Source: an uncultured Solirubrobacteraceae bacterium (GTDB lineage: Bacteria > Actinomycetota > Thermoleophilia > Solirubrobacterales > Solirubrobacteraceae). From it: 64,000 nt of DNA. Where the stretch lies: assembly GCA_963702975.1 (NCBI GenBank), contig OY969775.1:102851-166850 (forward strand). The letters run 5' to 3'. Positions 13,213 through 49,478 of this stretch are shown here, one piece after another (the stretch's first letter is position 1; each line of letters starts with the position of its first letter). Made by a program: the position numbers and the translations under genes. Below the pieces are notes generated by a model. That model had not been told where the DNA came from, ran no database searches, and saw only the letters and a list, made by a program, of their open reading frames with translations.

Positions 13213-13352
13213 CCGTTCGTGCCGAGTCCTCGCCCCCCAGGGGGTCGAGGAGCGGGGGACCCAATGCAGTCGTGAGACTGCTGGGGCGAATCGCCACCGA
13301 GTGTGGCGTAGCGTAGACGTTTACGCGAGCCCGTCAGCTAACCCCGTAGGCG
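13213..13352 (+). ncRNA. Cyclic di-AMP (ydaO/yuaA) riboswitch
   Basis: GCCGAGTCCT...AGGAGCGGGGGACCCA...GGGGCGAATC...GCCCGTCAGCTAACCCCGTAGGC; upstream of a cell-wall hydrolase, the usual actinobacterial context. Confidence 0.92.
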
Positions 13353-13384
13353 CCATGCAAAGGAATGGAGAAAGGACGCCTCGG

Positions 13385-15207
13385 ATGCCGGGATCCACGC
13401 GTGATCTTGCTGTTGTCGACCACTGGAGCGCATCGCTCGAGCGCTCGCGCGAACGCCGTGCTCGCGCCCAGCGCGGGCGCATTCGCCGCGGCGCCCACGC
13501 GAGCGGCTCGCTGTCCGCGCTGCTGGCGCACCCCAGCGCGATCGCCCAGCCGCGCGATCTCGCCGACGAGCAGCCGTGGCAGCTCTCGCTCGGGCGCTCG
13601 CGCGCACGCAGGCGCGCCGCCGAGCTGCGCTTCGTCCCGAGCGGCTCCCGCGCCAAGCGCGTGTCGCTCGGCGCGCTCGTGGCGCTGACGGTCGGCCCCA
13701 CCGCGAGCCTCGCCAGCGGCCAGTCGGCGGCCGGCTCGGCGGCCAACCCGGAACCGGCGACCACCACCGAACACGTGATCACGCTCAGCTCCGGCAGCGA
13801 AGGCCGCCAGGTGCAGCTGCTGCAGCAGGCGCTCGGCGGCGTCAAGGTCGACGGCGTCTTCGGCCCGGAAACGGAAGCCGCGGTCCGCAGCTTCCAGGAA
13901 CGCAGCGGCCTCGCCGTCGACGGCGTCGTCGGTGCGCAGACGAGCTCCGCGCTGCACACGCAGAGTGCCGGCAAGGCGTTCATCGCGGACGTCAGCAGCG
14001 CGCTCCCCGGGACCGCGTCGCTGCCCGCACCGTCCACGTCCGAAGCTTCAACGTCAGAAGCTTCAACGTCAGAAGCGTCCACGTCGACTTCGACGACGAG
14101 CGGCGACACGGCCGCGGGCGCAGAAGCCGCCACGGGCGGCGAAGGCGCCGCGCACCTCGCGAGCGACACCACCGGCGGCTCGCAGGCGACGCCGGAACTC
14201 GAACCGGCGGAAGCGGAAGCTGAAGCCAAGAGCGTGGAAGCCGAAAAGCAGGCCGAAGAACAGCGCACGCAGGAAACGGAAGCGGGCGCGGTCAAGCAGC
14301 TGCAGAGCGCGCTGCGCGTCAGCGCCGACGGCGACTTCGGCCCCGCAACCGAGGCCGCGGTGCGCCGCCTGCAGGCCCGCCACGGCCTCACGGTCGACGG
14401 CATCGTCGGCCCTGCGACGTGGAACGTGATCGGCGTCCACGGCCAGCAGACGCTGACCCCCCCGCCTCCGCGCTGCCCAAGCCGGCCGCGCCGCGACACG
14501 CGGCGGCGATCGCCGCGACGAGCGACGTCGGGCTCACCGCGGGCAGCGGCGGCACGCAGGAAGCCGGCCAGGAAACCGCCACGGGCGCGACCGCGGTCGA
14601 GTGGCTGCAGAAGGCGCTGAAGCTCCCCGTCGACGGCGAATTCGGCCCCGAAACCGAGGCGGCGGTCCGCCGCCTGCAGGCCCGCCACGGCCTCGCGGTC
14701 GACGGCGTCGTCGGCCCCTCGACGTGGGCCGTGATCGGCGTGCAGGACGCGGCCACGCTCACGCCTCCCCCCTCCGCGCTCGCCGCGCCGAGCTCGCCGG
14801 GCGGCGCCGCCGGCACGGACGCCACCGGCGCGGGCGGCGGCGGCGAAGCCGAAAGCATCGTCGCGCGGGTGATCGCCGCAGCGGATGAAATCGCGACGCG
14901 CCCGTACGTGTGGGGCGGCGGGCACGGCTCGTTCGAGTCCGAAGGCTACGACTGCTCGGGCTCGGTCTCCTACGCGCTGCACGGCGGCGGGCTGCTCAGC
15001 TCGCCCGAGGACTCGACGGGCCTCGAGTCATACGGCGAACCCGGGCCCGGCAGGTACATCACGATCTACGCCAACGCCGAACACGCGTGGATGACCATCG
15101 ACGGCAAACGCTTCGACACCGTCGCCCTCGCCGAAGACGGCTCCCGCTGGGGCGGGTCCGGCGACGACGGCGGCGGCTTCGTCGAACGGCACCCGGCCGG
15201 GCTGTAG
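13385..15207 (+). pseudogene. Peptidoglycan-binding (3 domains) + NlpC/P60-like hydrolase, split by a 1-nt frameshift near 14457-14467
   Basis: Three V.LQ.AL...DG.FGP.TEAAVR..Q...GL.VDG.VG..T units; C-terminal PYVWGGGHG..YDCSGSVSYAL...H; frame changes at CTGACCCCCCCGCCTCC (frame 13301 continues in frame 14419). Confidence 0.85.
14033..14086 (+). repeat. Coding 15-nt tandem repeat (STSEA x3) in a linker
   Basis: TCCACGTCCGAAGCT TCAACGTCAGAAGCT TCAACGTCAGAAGCG TCCACGTCG. Confidence 0.8.
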
Positions 15208-15209
15208 TT

Positions 15210-15328
15210 CGGGGGCGCGCATGCGCGCCCCCGCGTAGGGCCGCATGCGGCCCTACGGTCACGCCGCATGCGGCGTGCCCCCGGTGGGCGCATGCGCCCA
15301 CCGGCTCCCCCGCACATGTGCGGGGGAG
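15210..15328. repeat. Array of five tandem ~24-bp palindromes centred on RCATGY
   Basis: CGGGGGCGCGCA|TGCGCGCCCCCG, CGTAGGGCCGCA|TGCGGCCCTACG, gtCACGCCGCA|TGCGGCGTGcc, CCGGTGGGCGCA|TGCGCCCACCGG, CTCCCCCGCACA|TGTGCGGGGGAG; centre spacings 24, 23, 24, 24. Confidence 0.95.
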
Positions 15329-15411
15329 AACGTCGCCCGAGCGTCCCGTCCCAAGCAGGACCTAGCTTCTTCTGCCGCTTGCAGGAAACGGCTACGAGAG
15401 GAGGCTGCGCG

Positions 15412-16983
15412 ATGCTGGCGCGGGCGCACACGTTCACGATCGACGGCCTGCGGACGCGACACGTCACCGTCGAGGTCGACGTGCGCCGCGGGCTGCCCGC
15501 GTTTGCGATCGTCGGGCTCGCCGACACGGCCGTGCGCGAGGCGCGCGAGCGCATCACTGCGGCGATCCTCAACTCCGGCTATGAGTTCCCCGCGCGGCGT
15601 ATCACCGCCAACCTCGCGCCGGGGGACGTGCGCAAGGCCGGTCCCGGCCTTGACCTCGCAATTGCATGCGCGGTGCTCGCCGCCAGCGGGCAGCTTCCCG
15701 GCGACGAGCTCGACCGTATAGCGCTGTTCGGCGAGCTCGCGCTCGACGGCGCCGTGCGCCCAGCGTGGGGCGCGCTCGCCGTCGCGCACGCCGCACAGCG
15801 GGCGGGCATGCGCGCGCTCGCGCTCGCGGGCGCCAATGCCGGCGAGGCGCGCCTGATCGAGGAGCTGCAGGTGACCGTCGTCGAGCACCTGCGAAGCGCC
15901 GTGCGGGTCCTGAGCGGTGGCGCCGGCGACGCGCTTCCCGAGCATGCCGGCGCTGGCGCGCGATCGCGGGCCGACCGGCTCGACGGCGGGACGGACAGCG
16001 ACGGTGACGCGCCGGGCCTCGCGGGGCCGGACCTGAACGAGGTGCGCGGCCAGCACCACGCGGTCCGGGCGCTCGTGATCGCCGCCGCGGGCGCGCACAA
16101 CATGCTGCTGAGCGGCCCGCCGGGGACCGGCAAGACGATGCTCGCGCAGCGGATCGCCTCGATCCTGCCGCCGCTCAACAGGGCGGAGGCAGTCGAGGTG
16201 ACGCGCATCCACAGCCTCACCGGCGCGCGCGTGGACGCGCTCGCTGTGGAGCGGCCATTTCGCGCGCCCCACCACTCGATCACCGCCGCCGGCCTCGTCG
16301 GCGGGGCCAGCCGCGGCGCGCTCGGCGAGGTCGTGCTCGCCCACCACGGCGTGCTGTTCTTGGACGAGCTGTCGGAGTTCTCGCGCGCGACGCTGCAGGC
16401 GCTGCGCCAGCCGCTCGAGGACGGGCGGGTCGCGATCTCGCGGGCGCGCCACTCGGCCGTGTACCCCGCGCGCTTCATGCTGATCGCCGCCACCAACCCG
16501 TGCCCGTGCGGCTACGCGGGCGAGGGCGAGACCTGCGGCTGCAACGAAGCGGACATGGCCCGCCACCGCCGGCGCCTCAGCGGCCCGCTGCTCGACCGCA
16601 TCGACCTGCTCAGCACGCTGCAGCGCGACCTCACACACGATCTGCGCGCGCCAGCGCTGACGAGCTCCGCGCAGGCGCGCGAGCAGGTCGCGTGCGCACG
16701 CGCGCGCCAGGCGGCGCGCCTGGCGGGCGAGGGCGTGGCGGTCAACGCGCACATGGACGGGCGCATGCTGCGCCGGCACGTGCGCCTCGACGCCAGGGGA
16801 CAGGAGCTGCTGCGCGCGGCGCGCCAGCGAGGGCTGCTGAGCGCCCGCGGCGAGCATCGCGTGCTGCGCGTCGCGCGCACCATCGCCGACCTCGACGCGA
16901 GCGATCGCGTGCGCGCGGCGGACCTCGGTGCCGCGCTCGCGCTGCGCCCCGAGCCGGGCCTCGCGGGCAACCGGGCGGCGTGA
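15412..16983 (+). CDS. comM: YifB/ComM Mg-chelatase-like AAA+ ATPase
   Basis: VEVDVRRGLPAFAIVGL, ITANLAP.D..K.G..LDL, GPPGTGKT, LFLDELSEF, AATNPCPCG, SGPLLDRID; GAGGAGG SD. Confidence 0.95.
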   Translation: MLARAHTFTIDGLRTRHVTVEVDVRRGLPAFAIVGLADTAVREARERITAAILNSGYEFPARRITANLAPGDVRKAGPGLDLAIACAVLAASGQLPGDELDRIALFGELALDGAVRPAWGALAVAHAAQRAGMRALALAGANAGEARLIEELQVTVVEHLRSAVRVLSGGAGDALPEHAGAGARSRADRLDGGTDSDGDAPGLAGPDLNEVRGQHHAVRALVIAAAGAHNMLLSGPPGTGKTMLAQRIASILPPLNRAEAVEVTRIHSLTGARVDALAVERPFRAPHHSITAAGLVGGASRGALGEVVLAHHGVLFLDELSEFSRATLQALRQPLEDGRVAISRARHSAVYPARFMLIAATNPCPCGYAGEGETCGCNEADMARHRRRLSGPLLDRIDLLSTLQRDLTHDLRAPALTSSAQAREQVACARARQAARLAGEGVAVNAHMDGRMLRRHVRLDARGQELLRAARQRGLLSARGEHRVLRVARTIADLDASDRVRAADLGAALALRPEPGLAGNRAA

Positions 16984-49406: not shown

Positions 49407-49478
49407 CCGGGTGGCGCATGCGCCACCCGGCCGGACGGTGCACGCACCGTCCGGTGGGGCCGCACATGTGCGGCCCCG
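49407..49478. repeat. Array of three tandem 24-bp palindromes, same family as 15210-15328
   Basis: CCGGGTGGCGCA|TGCGCCACCCGG, CCGGACGGTGCA|cGCACCGTCCGG, tGGGGCCGCACA|TGTGCGGCCCCg; centre spacing 24, 24. Confidence 0.93.

Follow-up and report, generated by a model that had tools for sequence, protein, structure and literature searches.

A palindromic array between a cell-wall hydrolase gene and comM

Five palindromic units lie end to end at positions 15210-15328 of the window, the 64,000-nt stretch of DNA analysed here, between a gene for a peptidoglycan-binding, NlpC/P60-like cell-wall hydrolase and one for a YifB/ComM-family Mg-chelatase-like ATPase (Table 1). The hydrolase matches PG_binding_1 in Pfam (7e-15) and, weakly, NLPC_P60; the ATPase matches Mg_chelatase (3.5e-83) as well as ChlI and Mg_chelatase_C. 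Successive unit centres are spaced by 24, 23, 24 and 24 bp, the shorter step arising because unit 3 has one base in common with unit 2. Four centres read GCATGC and one ACATGT, and the array starts 2 nt past the hydrolase stop codon. The original prediction had described five abutting palindromes with this spacing, RCATGY centres and this distance from the stop, and each of these points is borne out by the sequence. The short flanks TT and AAC together make up the TTC...GAA(C) flank typical of array ends, which read outward as A (43%), A (46%) and C (68%). As RNA, the array folds into five hairpins with a free energy of -114.7 kcal/mol (z = -7.4 against shuffled sequences).

Downstream of the array, the motif GTCCCGTCCCAAGC-N4-CCTAGCTT is kept in 14 of 15 orthologous spacers of the genus and also in the relative L198. 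It contains TAGCTT, which matches the actinobacterial TANNNT -10 pattern, so that the motif is probably the promoter or leader of comM; it marks the right limit of the insertion described below. On the other side, the hydrolase region (13301-15207) is occupied by two overlapping open reading frames in different frames, 13301-14620 and 14419-15207. The close relative L197 has an undivided hydrolase gene, which encodes at least 607 aa and contains repeated PG_binding_1 domains, and the split seen here could reflect a frameshift, a homopolymer assembly error or a genuine division of the gene.

Table 1. Features of the array locus and of the second array in the window
Feature	Position	Strand	Description
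Peptidoglycan-binding, NlpC/P60-like cell-wall hydrolase gene	14419-15207	+	Upstream of the array; stop TAG at 15205-15207; from the ORF list
Left-edge flank	15208-15209	.	TT dinucleotide
Unit 1	15210-15233	.	CGGGGGCGCGCATGCGCGCCCCCG; 12/12 pairs, perfect 24-bp palindrome, centre GCATGC
Unit 2	15234-15257	.	CGTAGGGCCGCATGCGGCCCTACG; 12/12 pairs, perfect 24-bp palindrome, centre GCATGC
Unit 3	15257-15280	.	11/12 pairs, centre GCATGC at 15268/15269, perfect 18-bp core at 15260-15277
Unit 4	15281-15304	.	12/12 pairs, perfect 24-bp palindrome, "A type" (CCGGnnGGCG)
Unit 5	15305-15328	.	CTCCCCCGCACATGTGCGGGGGAG; 12/12 pairs, perfect 24-bp palindrome, centre ACATGT
Right-edge flank	15329-15331	.	AAC
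ComM upstream motif	15343-15368	+	GTCCCGTCCCAAGC-N4-CCTAGCTT; conserved genus-wide; outside the repeat
YifB/ComM-family Mg-chelatase-like ATPase gene	15412-16983	+	Downstream of the array
Second array	49407-49478	.	Three units; middle centre mutated to GCACGC

A dispersed family within the genome

The array is one of 26 in a host genome of 3.48 Mb and 70% G+C, with a total of 99 units, of which 62 are perfect. A unit measures about 24 bp and consists of a GC-rich 10-bp arm, a CATG centre in a C-R...Y-G frame and the mirror arm. Arrays of the family have 3-7 units that abut without linkers (3-5 in this genome), with steps of 23 bp (20 cases), 24 bp (41), 25 bp (9) and 26 bp (3). By arm length, the maximal palindromes of the genome peak sharply at 12, with CATG far ahead of every other centre. 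Of the 24-bp palindromes centred on CATG, 62 are perfect and 35 have one mismatch, against 0-3 perfect ones for each of 11 other palindromic 4-mer centres, some of which are ten times commoner; the enrichment far exceeds chance.

The units fall into recurrent types, which often follow one another as A (CCGGnnGGCG...), B (GGGGCCGCACATG...) and C (GACCnnGCCG...), and identical units are found in separate arrays. For instance, unit 4 and the first unit of the array at C1:2413122 are the same without a single difference. The recurrence of types in a preferred order, together with identical units across arrays, indicates that arrays are copied as blocks and are not local inventions. The earlier suggestion of a construct assembled on the spot, unit by unit, thus gives way to one copy of a dispersed family. 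That the arms differ from unit to unit is true within a single array and fails beyond it, where the same arms recur.

The second array of the window lies 7 nt past the stop codon of a minus-strand H+-pyrophosphatase gene. Outside the window (G000:C1:1457430-1459155), a gene for a RES-domain toxin, together with its putative partner of the Xre type, is flanked on either side by near-identical arrays that point in the same direction, lie 1.6 kb apart and have the units GACCAGGCCG.., GGGCCGCACATG.. and TCAGCCGGCG.. in common; the pair looks like a cassette inserted into an array, or carried between array copies. On C1, the cumulative GC skew reaches its lowest value near 2.12 Mb and peaks at the ends of the contig. 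The region from 1.68 to 2.41 Mb is free of arrays, the nearest lying at least about 290 kb from the skew minimum, and the overall genomic distribution of arrays shows no significant bias with respect to origin or terminus.

Distribution across genomes

A search pattern of three consecutive centres matched 16-19 of 25 genomes of the genus with 0-168 matches each, compared to about 0 for the reversed pattern used as a control. Across the order, 43 of 401 evenly sampled genomes matched, and within this sample true arrays were confined to the genera g1, g14 and g17 of one family and a single g89 genome of a second family. A stricter pattern run over 185,579 species genomes returned more than 119 loci, all of them in soil MAGs of Solirubrobacterales/Solirubrobacteraceae, and the family was recovered from nanopore as well as megahit MAGs of several projects. 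The scan for RCATGY palindromes called for in the original prediction has thus yielded 26 arrays here and a patchy occurrence in three genera and one further genome. The arrays appear to be a family limited to a few genera of one Solirubrobacterales family.

In several other MAGs (L049:6850-7200, L126:4080-4400, L090, L052 and L072), arrays often end in a longer flank, (G)ACAACATCAGCTTTTTCAAG, followed by CATG and a copy of the right arm only. Some arrays repeat this half-unit module in tandem at intervals of about 39-65 nt. The module was not found in the present genome, in which AAC(N)ACATC alone is left. Phages were considered as a vector and rejected. The two pattern matches in IMG/VR (L194:8940-9040 and L195:7900-8000) consist of units of about 24 bp in direct tandem repetition, with CGCATGCG inside and arms that are not palindromic, and no phage copy of the family was found among them; these viral repeats are of a different kind, with only the core word in common.

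Recent insertion and turnover of units

The empty and filled orthologous sites proposed for comparison could indeed be lined up. In 15 other species of the genus, the spacer between the hydrolase gene and comM has no array and usually holds one ordinary GC-rich hairpin followed by the GTCCCGTCCCAAGC...CCTAGCTT motif. A relative whose ComM is 97% identical carries the array at this site; in L198, with a ComM 92% identical, the array is absent and the spacer is only 21 nt long. The empty site of L198 reads TAG-AAGCCAC-TTCG/AAGACGCCGGCCGAGCG, as compared to TAG-TTCG(array)AACGTCGCCCGAGCG here, and its junction (TTCG/AAG) is itself a small palindrome, CTTCGAAG. The likeliest reading is that the array was inserted into a small TTCGAA-type palindrome with the loss of 7 nt, the boundaries being resolved to about 2 nt at this one site. 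Base-precise boundaries from the species-level relatives were not attainable, as their spacers are too diverged; L198 offers the only near-precise empty site.

The array between the hydrolase gene and comM is therefore a recent, lineage-specific insertion, and eight more arrays of this genome are missing at the orthologous sites of five to six relatives. Turnover is also seen within arrays. At the site of the second array, relatives that are 97-99% identical in the pyrophosphatase have four units, three units, a remnant, or a solo quasi-palindrome or hairpin; the three-unit state of the present genome differs by the loss of one unit, one symmetric C/A change and one mutated centre. Comparison of these states shows that single units are gained and lost after an array has been inserted. 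The solo quasi-palindromes at this site (L202/L203:2780-2815 and L199:2780-2800; e.g. CGTCGGCGCACGCGCCGACG) have a CACG centre and are either decayed remnants or proto-units made by a local reverse-complement copy.

Symmetric evolution of the arms and constancy of the centre

Perfect units make up 76% of the 545 counted in 126 arrays of other MAGs. In the present genome, most ordinary hairpins are imperfect. In a logo of 416 perfect units, CATG is invariant, a purine occupies position -3 and C position -4 in 94%, while the outer arm positions vary between G and C with no conserved tag. The 5' arm is purine-rich, with G more frequent than C and A more frequent than T. The logo bears directly on the GTAG or GTGG "foot" that had suggested a link to RAYT nucleases: GTAG is unique to unit 2, the 416 units show no conserved tag and the genome has no RAYT gene, which leaves this lead without a basis.

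Orthologous arrays of different species differ by mirror-image changes. Arm changes amount to 269 two-sided against 14 internal one-sided events, and 55% of the two-sided changes are transversions. In 16 orthologous pairs, limited to arrays of equal unit number, 100 of 511 arm positions had changed on both sides and one on a single side, and the fastest codon phase of the flanking genes (third positions) shows about 23% mismatch. The arms thus drift at about the silent-site rate, in a comparison that may count some unit replacements as substitutions, and spend only about 0.1-1% of the time in an asymmetric state. About 98% of units (92 of 94 and 534 of 547) retain CATG at the centre.

Compensatory evolution is much slower than neutral evolution when the intermediates are deleterious. 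A two-sided rate close to the silent rate, with about 1% asymmetric intermediates, therefore argues that selection for pairing is insufficient by itself and that one arm is copied onto the other. The loop is not open to correction by such intrastrand copying and CATG is nonetheless kept, which argues for selection on the centre. Two elements of the original prediction are strengthened by these observations, namely that symmetry is regenerated while centre and unit length stay fixed, and that template switching could be the means. Template switching is known to turn imperfect inverted repeats into perfect ones (PMC5941160, PMC8794818, PMC7202029).

Gene context and possible effects on RNA

With genes outside the window called by a custom codon model, 67% of arrays lie between co-directional genes, 19% between convergent and 14% between divergent ones, against a background of 60, 15 and 24%. 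Between co-directional genes, the median distance to the preceding stop is 37 nt and that to the next start 102 nt, a preference for gene ends that resembles that of REPs (PMC3733652). At least three arrays are found in divergent promoter regions (F420 oxidoreductase/HMG-CoA lyase-like, serpin/PdxS and DnaK/desaturase), the first of them 12 nt from a start codon, and such arrays argue against a general role as terminators.

In the present locus, the five hairpins, once transcribed, would give the hydrolase mRNA a very stable block at its 3' end, ahead of the putative comM promoter. REP325 of E. coli is reported to be a terminator and a stabiliser at once (bioRxiv 10.64898/2026.03.23.713779), and by analogy it is plausible that the block acts in a similar manner, as a terminator and a barrier to 3' exonucleases. 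Since arrays also occur between divergent starts, any such effect on RNA is best read as a probable by-product of a largely selfish or neutral repeat. No intrinsic terminator-like site and no U-tract were found in 15000-15500, where the array is followed by AACGTCGCC. The best matches of the array in Rfam, sX12 and naRNA4, reach 17 bits against thresholds of 106 and 59.5 (E about 7).

Searches for partner genes and known repeat classes

The statement that the window holds no RAYT gene can be extended to the whole genome. The Y1/RAYT family (PF01797), whose genes are usually flanked by REPs, has no match in it, and 24 of the 25 genomes from the genus likewise have none; the same search found matches in 6 of 14 named genomes used as a control, E. 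coli included. TnpB (PF07282) is missing from 39 of 40 genomes, this one among them, and reverse transcriptase (PF00078) has no match here and is present in 5 of 20 array-rich versus 9 of 20 array-free genomes. RAYT/Y1, TnpB and reverse transcriptase were accordingly rejected as movers of the arrays, being absent or uncorrelated with them, and the co-occurrence with Y1/HUH or reverse transcriptase genes that had been proposed as a test did not materialise. No gene family recurs beside the arrays at 126 loci; where neighbours do recur, the sites are orthologous and the genes have housekeeping roles (ftsZ, for example). No multi-copy transposase fits either, the sole transposase-like multi-copy ORF being a three-copy DDE fragment of 214 aa. 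Canonical SbcD (TIGR00619 above cut-off) is present in two of 40 genomes of the family, both array-free, and absent here, so that the hairpin-cleaving SbcCD nuclease seems generally absent from the lineage. Its loss was considered as a permissive factor and found not to discriminate, as most array-free genomes also lack SbcD.

Several known classes were considered for the array and set aside. A CRISPR array, in which identical direct repeats alternate with unique spacers, is at odds with palindromic units that vary in sequence and have no spacer between them. Integron attC sites were judged on site features: the array edges, 5'-GTTC...GAAC-3', have the opposite polarity to RYYYAAC...GTTRRRY, and several short perfect hairpins dispersed beside core genes stand against the single long imperfect hairpin of attC, which occurs in cassette arrays beside intI. 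Miniature elements derived from IS200/IS605 (PATE-like) have asymmetric subterminal hairpins and would go with PF01797 or PF07282, both absent here, and a repeat made by a retron or other reverse transcriptase was dismissed given that PF00078 is missing from the genome and its occurrence does not follow that of the arrays. A translated array is contradicted by the 36-44% of unit steps that are not 24 bp and do not keep the reading frame. LexA boxes (GAAC-N4-GTTC) have their half-sites in another order and at another spacing than the array flanks. A restriction-modification footprint was likewise rejected, for CATG and RCATGY words occur at expected genome-wide frequencies; GCATGC itself is found 1358 times, as expected, mostly outside arrays. 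No prior description of a CATG-palindrome family was found in the literature searched, in keeping with the suggestion of an undescribed REP-like array.

Interpretation

We favour, with moderate confidence, the reading that the arrays are a REP/BIME-like selfish or structural repeat, with symmetry maintained through template switching from arm to arm and a centre recognised by a putative reader. Symmetry would be restored at the DNA level by copying one arm onto the other, the likeliest route being quasipalindrome template switching at replication, which a palindrome without a spacer should favour. The CATG centre would be held by selection, either because a putative factor reads it or because a copying or spreading step needs it. 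Generic template switching accounts neither for the extra perfection of the family over ordinary hairpins nor for the fixed centre.

A rival reading is a dedicated enzyme: a CATG-reading hairpin or cruciform nuclease or recombinase that mobilises arrays, changes the number of units and regenerates palindromes from one arm, comparable perhaps to the hairpin intermediates of protelomerases or hairpin-forming transposases. In its favour are a centre that stays invariant as the arms drift, the fixed unit length of 23-26 bp and a perfection far above that of ordinary hairpins in the same genome, and it agrees with the patchiness among close genomes (0-168 matches), the recency of insertions and a near-precise empty site that is itself a small palindrome, CTTCGAAG. 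Such an enzyme is nevertheless unlikely, given the absence of Y1/RAYT, TnpB and reverse transcriptase, of a fitting multi-copy transposase beyond the three-copy DDE fragment and of any gene family recurrent at the 126 loci, and given that RCATGY is neither over- nor under-represented genome-wide. That the arrays are at once product and substrate of dedicated machinery, which reads the CATG of a hairpin or cruciform, copies an arm, and adds, deletes or transposes 24-bp units, we hold to be decidedly unlikely; if true, this machinery would represent a class of palindrome-maintaining mobile element that works without an HUH transposase.

The constancy of the centre might also reflect a docking platform on duplex DNA for a dimeric protein (a nucleoid protein, a gyrase-like protein or a methyltransferase) that recognises CRCATGYG at sites every 24 bp. 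The conserved part is indeed an 8-bp dyad (C at -4 in 94%, R at -3, CATG), arrays occur in every intergenic context including divergent promoters, and E. coli REPs bind gyrase, IHF and Pol I (PMC2817692). A protein that binds the core would, however, place no demand on the other 10 variable base pairs to be perfectly symmetric, a 24-bp period does not match an integral number of helical turns, and the 1358 copies of GCATGC lie mostly elsewhere, all of which makes this account very improbable. About as improbable is a role purely at the RNA level, in which tandem terminator or stabiliser hairpins are shaped by selection for pairing and ordinary compensatory mutation. The tendency of arrays to sit just past stop codons, the single hairpin at this position in relatives, the very stable fold and a 5' arm richer in G than C and in A than T would suit such a role. 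It fails to explain why two-sided changes, 55% of them transversions that have no route through G:U, proceed at about the silent rate with some 1% of intermediates and with G:U-type states essentially absent; nor does it call for a palindromic loop and strand-symmetric units, for the 14-20% of arrays between divergent starts or for the missing U-tract. Chimeric long reads can produce palindromes, but an assembly or fold-back artefact, as raised in the original prediction, has a negligible probability: the independent Logan assembly ERR11630400 contains the same array base for base, the family occurs in megahit and nanopore MAGs of several projects, and orthologous arrays are conserved between species.

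The family offers an unusually clean natural experiment on the perfection of palindromes, with hundreds of near-neutral units, almost no asymmetric intermediates and a frozen 4-nt centre. The rate and direction of arm-to-arm copying would be measurable from metagenomes, and the fixed centre points to a putative reader protein or step. In practice, the arrays are also markers of recent insertions and deletions that separate closely related soil strains, and at gene ends they may behave as hairpin blocks that work in either orientation.

Relation to known systems

The closest known kind are the REP and BIME repeats, including BIME-2 and REP325 of E. coli and the REPINs of Pseudomonas (PMC2817692, PMC3333891, PMC3733652, PMC3116915). 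Like them, the present family consists of short GC-rich palindromic units, about 100 copies per genome, in regular intergenic clusters that mostly follow the end of a gene in a co-directional or convergent pair and differ in location between close relatives; by analogy, its transcripts would form hairpin ladders. With 99 24-bp units in 26 arrays, it also falls within the size range of REPs (units of 20-40 bp, high copy number, intergenic and clustered). Unlike REPs, its units are perfect through the centre with no loop asymmetry, have no unpaired GTAG or CGTC tag, and combine stems that all differ within one array with an invariant CATG. The units of BIMEs alternate in orientation with defined linkers between them; perfect palindromes have no orientation, and those of this family abut at 23-26 bp without linker motifs. 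The host belongs to the Actinomycetota, and RAYT is absent from this genome and from 24 of 25 of the genus. Because both tag and RAYT are lacking, the family is not filed with the RAYT-type REPs; it would extend REP-like repeats to the Actinomycetota without these two defining links.

Quasipalindrome correction of the Lovett type (PMC7202029; also PMC5941160 on perfect inverted repeats and their conservation, and PMC8794818 on how hairpins are maintained) accounts for the two-sided changes and for arms that stay perfect with no G:U intermediate. This is a general process of mutation, not an element, and it leaves the fixed centre, the unit size and the spread to new sites unexplained. REP325/naRNA4 of E. 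coli (RF02564), a cluster of tandem hairpins in a 3'UTR, terminates transcription in part and stabilises the mRNA (bioRxiv 10.64898/2026.03.23.713779). It is the sole REP-related match in Rfam and, at 17 bits against 59.5 (E = 7), does not include the array as a member. The CGTC-tagged REPs, which "apparently lack a dedicated transposase" (PMC3733652), are likewise a palindromic family without a cognate transposase; compared to them, the present family belongs to another phylum, has no CGTC tag and consists of perfectly symmetric units gathered in arrays.
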